Notes under the pieces: generated by a model
Database searches by the model: none
The model's input: the letters and a program-made list of their open reading frames with translations, nothing else
What the model was told of the DNA's origin: nothing
Position numbers and translations under genes: made by a program
Shown here: positions 14,181 through 20,112 of the stretch, in pieces
Layout of the letters: the number at the start of each line of letters is the position of its first letter
How positions within the stretch are numbered: position 1 is the first letter of the stretch
Source of the DNA: Candidatus Bathyarchaeota archaeon
GTDB lineage: Archaea; Thermoproteota; Bathyarchaeia; TCS64
Reading direction: 5' to 3'
DNA: 26,083 bases
Assembly (NCBI GenBank): GCA_030602935.1
Contig: JAUVYU010000001.1
Location: 1-26,083, forward strand

Positions 14181-14497
14181 GTATTTCTCCGTAGTTAAAG
14201 TAAACATTAACTTCATAACATTATCTAGCCGCTACAGCAGAACGGACAACGCCTTCTCCTATCTAGGGTAGCTGGTTATCTATCTTCTATGCATTGCCCG
14301 CGCAACTACGGTGAGGCTTAAAATTGAGACCTAAGGGAATAATGTGTGTTTATTGAGACCGATGAACATTAAGATAGCGCGGTCACCCACAAAAACATCG
14401 ACAAGGTTTAAATTTTATGCAATATGATGTGATTGATAATTGAGGCATCTCATGATATGGCTTGTCATAATCAAAGGGAGTCCCAATTTAAGAATGG

Positions 14498-14505
14498 TTT
14501 AAATT
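14498..14505 (+). promoter_or_regulatory. TATA box of the SMC-like operon
   Basis: TTTAAATT 25 nt upstream of ATG 14531. Confidence 0.55.
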
Positions 14506-14530
14506 AGAGAACAGAGTCCGAGGAAGCCTG

Positions 14531-16591
14531 ATGCTGATCCGAGAAGTCATACTTGAGAACTTCATGTCCTACGAGTACGCTCGCGTCCCCCTGAAGGAGG
14601 GCGTCAACGTGGTCATAGGGCCCAACGGATCAGGCAAGTCCAGCTTCCTCGTGGGCATCTGCGTCGCCCTCGGGGACACCTACACCGAGCGGTCGAAGAA
14701 GCTCAGCGACCTCATTCGGTGGGGGCAGGACCGCGCGAGGGTAACATTACTCTTGGATAACTCGGTCAGGGAGAATGGTCGGAGATCCATCCCTCGCTTC
14801 GACAGCGACTTCATCAGCCTCTCGCGGACCCTGAGGCGGGACGGCAAGTACGGGTTCGAGATCAACCAGAGGAGCGCCCAGAAGTACGAGGTCATGGATA
14901 TCCTCAGGGACCTGGGCTTCGACCCCAATAACATGCTCATCATCATGCATCAGAACATGCCTTCAAAGTTCGCTGCCCTCAGCCCCCAGGAGAAGCTGGT
15001 CAACCTGGAGGAGTCGGTGGGCTTCGAGACCTACAGGAGGGACATCCTCGAGGCGAAGAACAAGCTGAGCAGCATCCTCAGCGAGCAGGAGAGCCTCAAC
15101 GACCTCCTGGCTAGGGCTCAGGAGACCCTGGGCTACTGGCGGGAGCAGAACGACCGCCTCCAAGAGAAGAGGCAGCACCGGACGCGGTCCCTGTTCCTCC
15201 AACGGGAGATGGCTTGGAGCAGGGTAGCCGACCTGGAGAACAGCCTCAGCAGGCTCGAACAGGAGCTGAACAAGGCGGACTCCGACCTCAAAGAGGCCGA
15301 GGCCGAGATGGAGCAGCGCAGCCAGCAGGTCATCGACACCCAGGCCTTGCTGAGGAAGAATCGGGATAACTCTGTCCTCCTCGTCGAGAAACGGGTTGAG
15401 CTTGAGAGGACTGTGGGCATCTGCGAATATACCATCGGCAACTCGAAAGACAGGTTGACTCAGCTCGACAGTATGACCTCGACGTTCCAAGAGTCGAAGA
15501 GGCGCTTCGAGATCAGCGCCGAGGCCCTCAAGGAGCGGCTCAAGGACGGGCCAACCACCCTGGACGCTTACTTTAACCTTGTGAACGAGTTCGAGGAGAC
15601 CCAGACAGAGGCCTACGACTCCTGGCAGGGCGACCTCTCGAAGCAGCGCTCCGGGATAGAGACCTCCGTCGACTCCCTGAGCAAGAAGCTGAGCGAGGCG
15701 GACGCGGGCTTGAAGGATGTAATGGAGGAGATCGCGTTAACCAACGCCCGCATCGACGAGGCCAACGACAGGTACATCGACGGGCGCATCAGCATGGCCC
15801 TCCTCACGGATCGCAGGGGACGGCTCAAGAGTAGGATAGACGAGCTCAAGGCGGATATCGACAGGCTGAGGCGGGACCTCAACGACGCCGAGGCGGAGGC
15901 CCTGATCAAGGGTTCAAGGGTTGAGACGGGTCGCTCGTCGGATGACATCTTGGGGGAGATAAGGAAGGTCAGCGGGATACTATTGGGGTTGGCGAACGTC
16001 TCGGAGGACGCCGAGGCGATGTTCGAGTCATACTCCCAGACCTTCAAGGATCTCCAGGAGAAGGTTGAGCAGGTCAAGGAGAACCGTCGCAAGGTCATGG
16101 GCGAGATAGACGAGAGGACGAGGATGTGGGCCGAGGTGATGCGGGACCTCCTGGAGGAGGTGAACAGCCGCTACCAGAGCCTTCTCTTCATGCTCCAGGC
16201 CACCGGCGAGGTGAGGCTCATCAACACCCACGACATCGAGGCCGCCGGCGTCGAGATCTGGGTCGGCTTCAAGGGCGCTGAGCCGAGCAGGCTCGACCCC
16301 TACACCCACAGCGGCGGGGAGCGGAGCACGTCGGTGATGGCGTTCCTCCTCTCGCTGCAGCAGAACGTCCTCTCCCCCTTCAGGGCGGTGGACGAGTTCG
16401 ACCTCCACATGGACCCGAGGAACAAGGAGATCGTCTCAGAGTTCATTGTCAAGACCCTCGAAGACTCCAAAGGCCAGTACATGGCCATCACCCCAAGCCA
16501 GATCACCTTCAGGGGGCAGGACGTCCACGTCATCATGGTCCACAAGACCGAGGGAGTCTCCACGATCCGGATGGTAGAGGACATTGAGTGA
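14531..16591 (+). CDS. SMC-superfamily ATPase, short and Smc5/6-like
   Basis: Walker [10 protein letters not shown]-loop IIMHQN, long coiled coils, [15 protein letters not shown] neck-like motif, HSGGERS signature, [13 protein letters not shown] Walker B/D-loop, QYMAITP. Confidence 0.92.
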
Positions 16592-17375
16592 CAGGGAGGG
16601 CAGGGCCCAGCTGGAGGGCGTGATAGCCATCTGTCGCTCCGTCTCCGAAGGAGCCCTCGACCCCTTCGCGGTGGACGTAGACTATGTCCTCTCCGTGATA
16701 AGGAGGCACTATCCCCAGGTGGCGTCCCTGGAGGAGTTCTGCCTCGACGCGTCAGCTATCAAGGAGCTGTCCAACGTGCTGGAGAAGCAGAACGATTGGA
16801 TCCAGCACCAGTCGACGACGCTCTACAAGGACCCCTTCATGCTCCAGCAGCAGCTCATGATGATGGACGTCAGCGCTGTCGCTGAGGCCTTCCTCAAGTC
16901 CTGGCACCCCGTCGTCGAGCTCGAGCAGATCTCAGTTAAAACACTTGGCGGAGCCCTCGGGTACTGGAGCGACCTCCTACCCATGGAGGAGAGGTGGGCG
17001 GAGGACCAAGTCAGCCCCGTCGACGCAGGCTCCGCAACGTGGCTGGAGGCCCAGGAGCTTGGGCTGATACCCCTGGAGGGCTTCTCGGAGACCATGGCAT
17101 CCTACTGGGCGGAGATGAAGGAAGTCTCAGAGGGGCAGGGGCGCATCCCCTACTGGGAATGGATCGGCAGGGAGACCTACCGGGAGACCCTGGTGAGGGC
17201 TTACATCACGTGCTACCTGGTGGGCTACGGATACGCCATCGTGGAGATGGACAGGTTCAGCGACAACGTCTACCTCACGCCCCTAGAGGAGCAGTCGGGC
17301 GCCGAGACGAACAAGATGATATCGTTGCCCGTAATGGTAGACTACGAGGAGTGGAGAAGATGGCGAGAAGGGTAA
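16584..17375 (+). CDS. Kleisin-like (ScpA-like) protein
   Basis: N-terminal [12 protein letters not shown] resembles the ScpA IDPWxIDI motif. C-terminal [30 protein letters not shown] resembles the kleisin winged helix. TTG start overlaps the SMC stop. Confidence 0.7.
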
Positions 17376-17938
17376 GACGCTCAGATACAAGATACTCCAG
17401 GAAGGTCAAGGACGCAGTCCACCTCCTGTTCTTCAAGCACCACAGGCTCCCCGGCGTAAGGGGCTGGGAGCTACGGCAGGAGCTGGGAGCCGAGTGGCTC
17501 GACGTCATCGACGTCCTCGACAAGCAACTTAAACTCCTCGACCTCAAGGTCACGCGCGCCCTAGACGACCCCGACATCATCGAGCCCACGAGGGCTCAAC
17601 TAGCGGACGCCAGGTTCTACATCACCATGAGGGGCTCCGTCGACCAGAAGACCGCCAAGACGATAGGCTGGAGGATAGACGACATCGCCGGGCTGGCCGT
17701 GACAATCGCGTTCCTCATCTCAAGGCAGGGGAAGACCCCCCGCGTCGACGTCGAGAAGGCTCTCGCCGAGAAGCTTCCAGGCTGGCGGACGAAGATGAAC
17801 GTCGACAGGTACATAGCGGAGGGCTACCTCGGCGAGGACGAGAGCGGCAACCTCTACATCGACTGGAGGAGCAGGGCGGAGGTTGACCAGAAGCAGCTCG
17901 TGGACCTCGTCCTGGCCTTCGGACGCAAGCCCGCTTAG
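17360..17938 (+). CDS. KITE-like (ScpB/Nse1/Nse3-MAGE-like) tandem winged-helix protein
   Basis: True start ATG 17360 overlaps the upstream stop. [16 protein letters not shown] helix and GYL...[12 protein letters not shown] wing resemble the second WH of KITE proteins. Confidence 0.68.
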
Positions 17939-20112
17939 CCCTCGAAGAGGAGGGCGCCCAGTAGCTCACGGAAGCTCCACTTGGAGCCCCCGGGAACAAG
18001 AGGGACAGCGTATACGTTCTCAGATAATGAGGGCCCCGCATCGGAGGGATGAACCACTACAACTAGGTTGTAGACATTCCTCAGCCTCTGAAGCTCGTGG
18101 ATACTTGAATCAAGCAGCGAGAAAGCTGTATCGAACAGAGGCCTGAAAGCGCACCTCATTGTTCTCCCGATCGAGTCTACAACCTCGAGATCGAGAAGCC
18201 TGCCTAACCCTGAGACATTCTGAGAGGTTGTCAATCTGACCGTGAACTCGCCATCACTCAACGTAATCCTCAGGTCATCCAGGTCAACAAACCCTCGGTC
18301 CCCGTCGAGGAGAAGAGTCGATTCTTCGTCTATCTGGAAGCCGATCCTCATGAATGACCTGACGATCTCGACCCCACACCACCTCTCATAGAGAAGTGAT
18401 GACCCGCCCATCTCGGGCAGCGAAGCCCGGATGTTGTATAGGGGTGGAGGCGTGTTCACGTCGTAGCTCTTCTTCATAGCGTAGAACCGGCCATAGTTGG
18501 GATGGGACGTGAGGACCTCCGTCTCGAGGGGCGGCTGCTGTGTGATCTCGACCTCATCTAGGAAGACAGCGGTACCTAGGTACCCCAGTATCTTACCCCT
18601 CAGCTCCTCGATCCCGGCGATGGTCTCCCGGTTTTTCGTCAGCACTTTCGCCCATCTAGCCGTCGCTGAGCTCCCTGAGAACTTTATCGCCCTGTTCAGG
18701 AGCGCCTCGATATCGGTGTTCACCTCTGAGACGGCGCCCAGCTGGGAGACCAGTCCCTGCAGGTGGGCCTTCAGCACCTTGTTCTCGAACGTGTCGTAGT
18801 TCCTTACGACGCCACTCTCGATGACGTTGATGGGGATCTCCTTGAGCAGCTCCCTAACCTCGGAGAACTCGCCATCAGTCTCTCCTTTTCGGACTAACAG
18901 CTCGTCAAGGATGGTCTTAGAGAGCTCCGGCTTGAGGCTATCCAACGAGCCCAGGGCCTTCCTCTCTGTCCTCTCGACCATCGCGTAATCGGGGTCCTCT
19001 GCTATCAGGTTGAGCACCGGTCCTAGCTCCATCCAGTGGTCCCTGATATGGTTGAGCCAGTCGGCGCTGCGCGCGCTGACCTCACCTTTGAGGACCGTGT
19101 AGACCATGTGGACGTACATGTCGGCGACCTCCTCGGCCATTATCCTTTGAAGTCTTTCATTGGATGAAGAATACCCGGCCTCCTTTCTCTCCTCTTTAAC
19201 TTGAGAACGTTCAGAGGGCGCTTCCCCCCTTCTATCTCCCTCCCTCCTGAGCAGGCCGATGAGCTGTTCCAGGGGGTCCCCGTTCTTCTCTAGGGCCTCT
19301 TCCGCTTCACGAGGAGTCCTGTCCTTCAGGTAGTCGGTCAGTGCGTCCATGAGCTCAGTTGTAGGTGACTTCTCGCTCTCAGGGGTCTGTGTCTGGCTCC
19401 TGATGTAGGCAGCCAGCGCGCCCACCAGCTCGTTGAGGGATGAGATGATGCCCTCTCTCGGCACATCTCCTGCCTCCTTCTTGAGCATTGTGACGAGGAG
19501 CTCGCACAGCTCGTCGAAGGCCGTCTTCTGGGGGCGGACCGCCTCGTACTGTGGCTGAGGTATCGCAGGTGGAGTAGGCCTGTACTGGAAGACGAGTCCC
19601 CTGCTCAACATGCGATCGATGATGCGGTCTATGAACTCGTCATCAGAGACGTCAACAGTTATCACGCGCCTCTCTGCCGGGAGTCCGGGGGCTGTGACCC
19701 TCATCCCTTCAACGGGAGGCGCCGCGACCTTGTCCGCTCCTGGCAGGACCGGCGGCCTCGCCTCAGGTATGATGACCTCCATCTCAGGAGGCTTCTCAAC
19801 CGTCGGAGTGGGCACGGTCACCTCGGCTTCCTCCTGCAGTAACAGCTCGTCGTCAGCAGCGTAGTACTGCTCCAGGATCTCGGCGCTGTGATCCCACCTC
19901 TTGTAGGAGTTGAGGCTGAGGATGATCTCGGCCTTGTCGACGTTGGCCTCGTCGGCGTCGTTGACGATGGCCATCTTGTCCTTGATCCGCCAGGCTGACT
20001 CGGCTGTGAAGAGGTTGAGTTCGTTGGGGAAGTACTTCAGGTCGATGAGGGAGTCTCCCCTGGTGACGTAGATGTACAGGTTCCCGCCGATCCTCGAATA
20101 GTATTTACCCAA
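17935..20112 (-). CDS. Multidomain DUF2357/McrC-like protein with a degenerate PD-(D/E)XK-like C-terminus
   Basis: RNYDTFENKVLK, TEVLTSHPNYGRFY and LLYERWC match DUF2357-type motifs. Unknown N-terminal domain and Pro/Glu-rich linker. TTG start abuts the upstream TAG. Confidence 0.72.
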   Translation of the reverse strand: MGKYYSRIGGNLYIYVTRGDSLIDLKYFPNELNLFTAESAWRIKDKMAIVNDADEANVDKAEIILSLNSYKRWDHSAEILEQYYAADDELLLQEEAEVTVPTPTVEKPPEMEVIIPEARPPVLPGADKVAAPPVEGMRVTAPGLPAERRVITVDVSDDEFIDRIIDRMLSRGLVFQYRPTPPAIPQPQYEAVRPQKTAFDELCELLVTMLKKEAGDVPREGIISSLNELVGALAAYIRSQTQTPESEKSPTTELMDALTDYLKDRTPREAEEALEKNGDPLEQLIGLLRREGDRRGEAPSERSQVKEERKEAGYSSSNERLQRIMAEEVADMYVHMVYTVLKGEVSARSADWLNHIRDHWMELGPVLNLIAEDPDYAMVERTERKALGSLDSLKPELSKTILDELLVRKGETDGEFSEVRELLKEIPINVIESGVVRNYDTFENKVLKAHLQGLVSQLGAVSEVNTDIEALLNRAIKFSGSSATARWAKVLTKNRETIAGIEELRGKILGYLGTAVFLDEVEITQQPPLETEVLTSHPNYGRFYAMKKSYDVNTPPPLYNIRASLPEMGGSSLLYERWCGVEIVRSFMRIGFQIDEESTLLLDGDRGFVDLDDLRITLSDGEFTVRLTTSQNVSGLGRLLDLEVVDSIGRTMRCAFRPLFDTAFSLLDSSIHELQRLRNVYNLVVVVHPSDAGPSLSENVYAVPLVPGGSKWSFRELLGALLFEG

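Follow-up and report, generated by a model that had tools for sequence, protein, structure and literature searches.

A run of three overlapping genes in the 26,083-nucleotide stretch of Bathyarchaeial DNA analysed here (the window) raises the question of what complex they encode and whether it has been seen before. An initial annotation, made from the letters alone, read the trio as a complete miniature Smc5/6-type complex of SMC, kleisin and KITE subunits and cautioned that the family might already be catalogued. Both the reading and the caution were sound: all three assignments stood up to testing by independent means, and the operon type, a Bathyarchaeota example included, has already been published. 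In the available portions of the two relevant papers, Yoshinaga and Inagaki (2021; PMC8665677) place Bathyarchaeota SMCs next to Smc5 and Smc6, while van Hooff, Raas, Tromer and Eme (bioRxiv 10.1101/2024.01.07.573240; 2024/2025) describe an operon of SMC, Nse4-like and Nse1,3-like genes in TACK and Asgard archaea, their Supplementary Table 3 giving three consecutive genes for Bathyarchaeota (E29_bin60). The tree support reported in these portions (PMC8665677 / bioRxiv 10.1101/2024.01.07.573240) is 59/70/0.97 for eight TACK homologues and 87/100/1.0 with the Korarchaeota homologue, the trees of the preprint being based on heads from which the coiled coil was removed. We consider it very probable that the trio is the Bathyarchaeial orthologue of this archaeal 'SMC5/6-related' complex, belonging to the core chromosome and present alongside a separate canonical Smc system.

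The genes lie on the forward strand at 14531-16591, 16584-17375 and 17360-17938 and encode, in that order, an SMC-family ATPase (686 aa, ATG start), an Nse4-like kleisin (263 aa, TTG start) and an Nse1/Nse3-like KITE protein (192 aa, ATG start). Gene 2 shares 8 nt with gene 1 and gene 3 shares 16 nt with gene 2, just as the overlaps had been described. Another possible start for gene 3, a GTG at 17351, would give a protein of 195 aa, the form of its relatives. Because hundreds of conserved homologues exist for all three proteins, these are real genes and not chance open reading frames. One TATA box had been claimed for the trio; the putative promoter region (14485..14506, forward strand) contains two TATA-like boxes, a BRE/TATA-like TTTAAGAA at 14487-14494 and a second, TTTAAATT, at 14498-14505. 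The first is conserved in the class: 45 of 49 Bathyarchaeia loci have as its counterpart a GGTTTAAAAAT element beginning 44-47 nt 5' of the ATG, and it is therefore plausible that a single conserved promoter drives genes 1-3. The ATG of gene 1 is preceded by a Shine-Dalgarno-like GAGGA (14520..14524, forward strand), inside a block, GAGTCCGAGGAA, that is kept in most Bathyarchaeia loci. Contigs from RNA-labelled marine-sediment libraries span all three genes and both junctions; such contigs do not prove that the genes are transcribed together, and some of the material may be carried-over DNA. They leave 14200-14453 uncovered, a gap that is not evidence for a transcript start. A sigma-70 and terminator scan of the locus was uninformative, the host being an archaeon.

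The product of gene 1, a small Smc5/6-related SMC ATPase, is divided into an N-head (approximately aa 1-165), antiparallel arms and a C-head (approximately aa 540-686). It matches SMC_N in Pfam (8.3e-33), stays under every curated NCBIfam cut-off and, in a language-model atlas search, retrieved only generic short SMC_N clusters. The ATPase motifs are intact. Walker A, GPNGSGKS (14618..14641, aa 30-37), is invariant in our alignment (A3). The ABC signature HSGGERS (16307..16327, aa 593-599) aligns with SGGERS of Smc5, and the 14-residue Walker B and D-loop motif (16373..16414, aa 615-628) aligns with PFRVVDEINQGMD of Smc5. At the H-loop position, QYMAITP (16475..16495, aa 649-655), a proline replaces the switch histidine; the aligned Smc5 segments read QYFFITP (human) and QYFLITP (yeast). 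I653, T654 and P655 are invariant in Bathyarchaeia homologues, and across classes the proline is invariant and the threonine nearly so. The initial annotation had been struck by the likeness of these head motifs to Smc5/Smc6, and searches of the PDB agree with that impression. The whole protein finds yeast Smc5 (6.5e-33), and both head halves rank Smc5 first, the N-head giving 60 bits with Smc5, 57 with Smc6 and 53 with Pyrococcus Smc, and the C-head 71 bits with human Smc5 and 44 with Pyrococcus Smc. A family C-head profile separates them further (Smc5 112 bits for human and 107, Smc6 70, archaeal Smc 67, bacterial Smc 46-48), with no Rad50, MukB or JetC match at E 1e-3. Identity of the N-head to the canonical Smc of the same genome is 28%. 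By score ranking, the heads appear to be nearest to Smc5, then Smc6, with prokaryotic Smc further off; this affinity is read from bit scores against PDB chains together with the published trees.

The term 'miniature' proved apt for a 686-aa SMC without a hinge. No match to SMC_hinge (PF06470) was obtained in gene 1 with Pfam at E up to 1, and the protein contains no CxxC zinc hook, its sole cysteines being C44 and C298. At the hinge's place stands a central arm/apex segment (15407..15730, aa 293-400, forward strand) that is specific to Bathyarchaeia and carries the invariant motif GPTTLD-YF, and a heptad heuristic breaks at aa 340-355. Orthologues in the other Thermoproteota classes, 584-649 aa in length, lack the segment, and the central region is unconserved from class to class. 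A different interruption, KG-RVETGR in the C-terminal arm (15908..15934, aa 460-468, forward strand), is kept in all classes aligned and also breaks the heptad heuristic; it may possibly be a joint in the arm. The arms comprise some 110-185 residues each. In every lineage examined (Thermoproteota/TACK) the SMC is 570-690 aa long, without hinge domain and without zinc hook, and in the available portions of PMC8665677 and bioRxiv 10.1101/2024.01.07.573240 we came across no comment on how short the protein is or on its lack of a hinge. It is possible, if somewhat short of probable, that in the lineages examined, all from Thermoproteota/TACK, the Smc5/6 relatives are hingeless mini-SMCs of this length equipped with a full kleisin and KITE set. 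If this were true and previously undescribed, the Smc5/6 lineage would have begun as, or TACK archaea would have reduced it to, a hinge-independent minimal head-kleisin-KITE DNA clamp. Among natural SMC-kleisin-KITE machines it would also be the smallest, and a tractable system for learning which SMC functions need long arms and a hinge.

Gene 2 has the architecture of a kleisin, as had been proposed from its ends: an N-terminal helical domain (aa 1-80), a linker and a C-terminal winged helix (aa ~165-235). The flexible linker includes a strongly conserved 10-residue motif that is invariant (aa 76-85). Scans of gene 2 with Pfam, NCBIfam and PADLOC, and a single-sequence PDB search, returned no match. 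A family profile (A1) placed the yeast Nse4 C-terminal domain (E 0.049) ahead of the ScpA N-domain (E 0.42) in the PDB, a Foldseek search with an AF2 model (pLDDT 66) gave Nse4 as the top match (1.3e-3), followed by RAD21 and the ScpA C-terminal winged-helix domain (TM 0.73), and atlas language-model features pointed to the Nse4 family (0.92). The profile, fold and language-model lines are each weak, but they agree, and they support the assignment of gene 2 as an Nse4-related kleisin.

For gene 3 the same scans and single-sequence search were likewise empty, and a profile of close homologues (A2) found no PDB relative. A more diverse profile (A4) matched Nse3/MAGE (7dg2_C, 1.6e-4), MAGE-G1 (1.6e-3), human NSE3 (6.3e-3) and NSE1 (8.3e-3); its top match, a designed repeat protein, was set aside as spurious. 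Eight of 33 family members match Pfam SMC_Nse1, the best at 4.7e-6. The AF2 model is poor (pLDDT 54) because the alignment is shallow; its top four Foldseek matches are nevertheless MAGE domains, with JetB among the weak ones. Confidence in both AF2 models is low to moderate and all fold-search E-values exceed 1e-3. Atlas features again favour MAGE (0.90), with MksE/DUF4194 among distant neighbours. The KITE-like winged helices noticed at the outset thus correspond to two domains (aa ~9-100 and 104-175) without a RING finger, and the assignment of gene 3 as a tandem winged-helix KITE related to Nse1/Nse3 is supported.

The SMC-kleisin-KITE order is kept in all 73 Bathyarchaeia loci (species) wherever the contig is long enough, in 13 of the 17 loci compared in other classes of Thermoproteota and in GCA_015522695.1; two distant KITE homologues sit on contigs too short for neighbouring genes. 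A search of 401 Thermoproteota genomes found the KITE gene in 198, usually once per genome, and KITE identity is 77-100% among the homologues listed. The chromosomal neighbourhood is stable, an M19 dipeptidase gene standing upstream in 40 loci. Downstream, 30 Bathyarchaeia loci have a convergent DUF2357/McrC-like gene; as a candidate general nuclease partner this gene was rejected, since among 401 genomes a single-protein search found it only within the same order. Elsewhere in the genome are a canonical Smc (467 bits; SMC_hinge 6.9e-22), whose gene runs off its contig, and a ScpB (115 bits), and the trio is therefore a second SMC system. The stand-alone ScpB has purD and a B3/4-domain gene as neighbours and no ScpA beside it. 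A search for ScpA in the genome, which is 58.6% complete, was negative, so that for this organism a 'second complete complex' is demonstrated only in part.

Could the trio instead serve mainly as an immune system against plasmids and viruses, similar to Wadjet/JetABCD or to the restriction of extrachromosomal DNA by Smc5/6, rather than maintain the chromosome? Two SMC-kleisin-KITE machines, Wadjet and Smc5/6, have roles against DNA elements (review PMC10586767); PADLOC reports weak matches of the SMC to its MADS3, LmuB and JetC models, and the McrC-like neighbour would suit such a role. Yet the operon lacks a nuclease gene, whether JetD/Toprim or another, PADLOC models match neither gene 2 nor gene 3, and the single-protein search of 401 genomes found the McrC-like gene only within one order. 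Moreover, the trio usually occurs once per genome, with strong conservation of sequence and gene order, in a stable housekeeping context, unlike patchy, fast-evolving defence islands. We regard a mainly immune function as unlikely, and the role in plasmid or virus restriction suggested by the initial annotation found no support in this analysis.

A reading of the trio as an ordinary prokaryotic Smc-ScpAB condensin that has diverged is hardly credible, even though the two have the same subunit logic, archaeal Smc heads come second among the PDB matches and the ScpA N-domain gives a weak profile match. Gene 1 scores 165 bits with TIGR02169 against a cut-off of 729, Pfam finds no ScpA, ScpB or SMC_hinge (PF02616, PF04079, PF06470), other parts of the genome code for a genuine canonical Smc with a hinge and a genuine ScpB, and matches to Smc5, Nse4 and Nse3/Nse1 all outrank those to Smc, ScpA and ScpB. 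A length of 570-690 aa without a hinge is nearer to RecN than to SMC, and NCBIfam Rad50 models match the first 100 residues weakly, which would fit a repair ATPase of Rad50/SbcC or RecN type followed by two unrelated winged-helix proteins. Against this stand the missing zinc hook, with C44 and C298 the only cysteines, the absence of an Mre11 gene nearby, Rad50 scores that are far under those for Smc5/6 and nil for the C-head, and the specific matches of genes 2 and 3 to kleisin and KITE; such an origin is very improbable.

The preferred reading, an archaeal SMC5/6-related complex, can be pictured by analogy with Smc-ScpAB and Smc5/6. Two SMC copies would engage their heads around two ATP molecules, and one kleisin would bridge them, its N-terminal helices on one neck and its C-terminal winged helix on the other's cap, with a KITE homodimer on the kleisin linker. 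The head-kleisin-KITE module may clamp DNA, which ATP hydrolysis would release or move, and the role of the complex is presumably chromosomal, in repair or organisation. Owing to the short arms and the missing hinge domain, the enclosed compartment would be much smaller than that of canonical SMC complexes, and without a hinge the classical SMC dimer geometry is not assured.

The operon appears to be an extant relative of the machine from which eukaryotic Smc5/6 arose, which makes it relevant to how eukaryotes came to have several SMC complexes. The point about SMC origins is already in print from phylogenies, for which this window provides a clean, complete example. The comparisons made here add two points: throughout Thermoproteota the SMC is always very short and without a hinge, and conservation is strong in both the promoter and the linker motif of the kleisin. 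In the literature searched we found no biochemical study of any archaeal member, and the compact trio would lend itself to reconstitution and structural study.

In comparison with known systems, the trio differs from Rad50/SbcC in having neither CxxC nor an Mre11 gene nearby and in scoring far below the NCBIfam Rad50 cut-offs; it also falls short of the curated NCBIfam models for ASRP/Sph and arcadin-4 (NF045487, 73.7 bits against a cut-off of 300; NF053563, 44 against 860). With Wadjet/MksBEFG (JetABCD) it has the SMC-kleisin-KITE module in common, but it lacks the JetD nuclease, its context is core-genome and vertically inherited, its SMC is much shorter, and similarity to JetC is only at the level of the coiled coil. 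Prokaryotic Smc-ScpAB resembles it in operon organisation and in a presumed homodimeric SMC with one kleisin and a KITE dimer, whereas the trio does not satisfy the curated models for Smc, ScpA and ScpB, has no hinge and coexists with a separately encoded canonical Smc and ScpB. The eukaryotic Smc5/6 core is alike in all three subunits, the heads being nearest to Smc5/Smc6 with ITP at the H-loop, the kleisin nearest to Nse4 and the KITE nearest to Nse3/MAGE and Nse1. In eukaryotes, however, an Smc5-Smc6 heterodimer of subunits of ~1100 aa is joined by hinges, while the trio has one hingeless SMC of ~690 aa, presumed to form a homodimer since there is only one SMC gene, and a single KITE that lacks the RING finger seen in Nse1; the operon has no further members, neither Nse2 nor Nse5/6. 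As far as the available portions of van Hooff and colleagues describe it, the archaeal 'SMC5/6-related' operon has the same three subunits in the same order, in a single operon and in the same taxon (TACK, Bathyarchaeia), with a condensin/cohesin-related Smc alongside, and nothing essential differs.

The trio is encoded on the + strand by three genes that overlap end to start across positions 14531-17938, an arrangement described in the initial annotation and confirmed by the ORF coordinates: an SMC ATPase (gene 1, 14531-16591, 686 aa), a kleisin (gene 2, 16584-17375, 263 aa, with a TTG start and an 8-nt overlap with gene 1) and a KITE protein (gene 3, 17360-17938, 192 aa, with a 16-nt overlap with gene 2). 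An alternative GTG at 17351 would extend gene 3 to the 195-aa form found in relatives. The source genome, from an uncultured member of the Bathyarchaeia, measures 1.26 Mb and is 58.6% complete. The observation of the trio is confirmed, and its interpretation as a Smc5/6-type system is supported.

In Pfam, gene 1 matches the generic SMC_N model alone (8.3e-33), and it reaches no curated family cut-off among the NCBIfam models, scoring 165 bits against 729 for SMC_prok_A (TIGR02169), 74 against 300 for ASRP and far below the cut-offs of the Rad50 and arcadin-4 models. When the whole protein was compared with all PDB chains, yeast Smc5 ranked first (6.5e-33); Pyrococcus Smc, human Smc5 and Smc6 came after it. 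Because the coiled coil could inflate full-length scores, the two halves of the head were searched separately. The N-terminal half scored 60 bits to Smc5, 57 to Smc6, 56 to Smc2 and 53 to Pyrococcus Smc, while the C-terminal half scored 71 to human Smc5, 65 to yeast Smc5, 44 to Pyrococcus Smc and 35-43 to Smc6. A profile of the C-terminal half, built from 15 orthologues of several classes, matched Smc5 at 112 and 107 bits, Smc6 at 70 and archaeal Smc at 67, with bacterial Smc (46-48) and Smc1 and Smc3 (about 40) lower and no Rad50, MukB or JetC match at E 1e-3. The head motifs first quoted as recalling Smc5/Smc6 are all found in the protein; QYMAITP aligns with QYFFITP and QYFLITP of Smc5, and the Walker B/D-loop stretch with PFRVVDEINQGMD of Smc5, and the argument from motifs therefore holds. 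None of Walker A, Q-loop, signature motif or Walker B varies across the family alignment, as would befit an active ATPase.

The protein is short, about 683 aa throughout the Bathyarchaeia and 570-649 aa in other classes and lineages. Neither gene 1 (Pfam) nor any of 120 homologues (precomputed domains) has an SMC_hinge match, and gene 1 contains no CxxC of a zinc hook. Residues 293-400 (15407-15730) form an insertion restricted to the Bathyarchaeia, in which GPTTLD-YF is invariant, and absent from the 570-649-aa Thermoproteota orthologues. In the alignment, the N-arm of the shortest orthologues passes almost directly into the C-arm; arm lengths are rough, being drawn from a crude heptad heuristic and the head boundaries. 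The C-terminal coiled coil is broken by KG-RVETGR (aa 460-468, 15908-15934), which is conserved in every aligned class and may represent an SMC 'joint' or a partner-binding site.

Gene 2 has no direct family match in Pfam, NCBIfam or PADLOC and none in a single-sequence PDB search. A profile of 35 homologues, compared with the PDB, placed yeast Nse4 first (E 0.049), aligning the C-terminal region with its C-terminal winged helix, and matched the N-terminus to the ScpA N-terminal domain (E 0.42). In the AF2 model (pLDDT 66), a low-confidence linker connects N-terminal helices, one of them long, to a C-terminal winged helix; nearly all of the model's Foldseek matches are kleisins (Nse4 at 1.3e-3, RAD21, a second Nse4, Brn1 and Scc1), and it superposes on the ScpA C-terminal winged-helix domain with a TM of 0.73 on the target and an rmsd of 2.9. 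Language-model features rank eukaryotic Nse4 clusters (0.92) above ScpA (0.77). The kleisin-like character proposed for gene 2 is thereby borne out, Nse4 being the top match by PDB profile, Foldseek and features alike. An invariant 10-residue motif within the linker (aa 76-85, 16809-16838) is a candidate site at which the KITE dimer or the SMC might dock.

Gene 3 is the most conserved of the trio (77-100% identity among the homologues listed). A close-homologue profile found no PDB relative, and an exhaustive profile search of 1.84 billion representatives recovered only 128 clusters. A diverse profile of 33 members of these clusters matched Xenopus Nse3/MAGE (1.6e-4), human MAGE-G1/NSE3 (1.6e-3 and 6.3e-3) and NSE1 (8.3e-3 and 0.011) in the PDB; among the same 33 proteins, Pfam detected SMC_Nse1 in eight (best 4.7e-6) and MAGE in two. 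Two helix-helix-helix-wing units are visible even in a poor AF2 model (pLDDT 54), in agreement with the KITE-like winged helices originally suggested. MAGE homology domains take the first four places among the Foldseek matches of this model, and JetB and the Nse1-Nse3-Nse4 complex rank lower; atlas features give MAGE 0.90, Nse3 0.79 and MksE 0.77. These results make gene 3 an Nse1/Nse3-type KITE that lacks a RING finger.

The SMC-kleisin-KITE order is intact, as far as contigs reach, in all 73 species-level Bathyarchaeia loci; outside this class, 13 of 17 Thermoproteota loci also keep it. At the other four (L125, L126, L118 and L121) the mini-SMC was not found adjoining kleisin and KITE, which at L125 and L126 lie about 1.9 kb apart. 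A distant lineage, GCA_015522695.1 (locus L132, 4591-7555), has the same order, with proteins of 570, 234 and 184 aa; there the trio is convergent with a gene for a 950-aa Lhr-type helicase, a possible sign of a DNA-repair neighbourhood. Of the 401 Thermoproteota genomes sampled, 198 have the KITE, mostly in single copy, with whole families lacking it. The Bathyarchaeia trio also occurs, with protein identities of about 70-80%, on contigs assigned to Patescibacteria, Krumholzibacteriaceae and Desulfaltia MAGs (L012, L032, L053); these contigs are probably mis-binned archaeal sequence. Upstream, an M19 dipeptidase gene is divergent in 40 loci. In 45 of 49 Bathyarchaeia loci (14485-14530 in the window; loci L010-L082), the SMC ATG is preceded by a GGTTTAAAAAT-type BRE/TATA element whose first base lies 44-47 nt upstream of it; the element is followed downstream by a conserved GAGG-containing block, GAGTCCGAGGAA, about 10 nt before the ATG; conservation of promoter and leader across the class is unusually strong. 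Contigs from RNA-labelled sediment libraries span both gene junctions, tentatively suggesting that the trio is expressed.

On the - strand, a convergent gene for a 725-aa DUF2357/McrC-like protein (17935-20112) ends 4 nt inside gene 3, and relatives occupy this position in 30 Bathyarchaeia loci. The appearance is not that of a mobile defence island: a single-protein search of the 401 Thermoproteota genomes found this neighbour in the same taxonomic order only, and the operon contains no nuclease gene. The trio's conservation follows the pattern of a core function inherited vertically.

A canonical Smc is present in the same genome (467 bits to TIGR02169, SMC_hinge 6.9e-22), its gene extending past the end of its contig (C44), as is a ScpB (115 bits), encoded by an isolated gene flanked by purD and a B3/4-domain gene (L009, contig C134) with no ScpA beside it; ScpA was not found in the source genome (58.6% complete). 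Gene 1 shares only 28% identity with this Smc over the N-terminal head, and the trio is thus a second SMC system of the genome.

The suspicion that the family might already be catalogued was justified. Yoshinaga and Inagaki (2021, PMC8665677) found archaeal SMC homologues, namely those of Crenarchaeota, Verstraetearchaeota, Thaumarchaeota and Bathyarchaeota, to group with the Smc5+6 clan. In TACK and Asgard archaea, van Hooff et al. (bioRxiv 10.1101/2024.01.07.573240, version 2, May 2025), whose trees were built with the coiled coil removed, showed two SMC operons; one is related to SMC5/6 and includes an Nse4-related kleisin together with an Nse1,3-related KITE. The text and supplements searched from both papers yielded no discussion of the short length or missing hinge of the SMC, and the hingeless mini-SMC offers a modest upside. 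In Supplementary Table 3 of van Hooff et al., three consecutive genes are listed as a Bathyarchaeota operon, and Nse4-related and Nse1,3-related neighbours are scored in further Bathyarchaeia; equivalence to that operon is based on the shared taxon and gene order and on the family assignments. The finding, though correct, is therefore not new, the trio being another orthologue of a biochemically unstudied system that has been described before.
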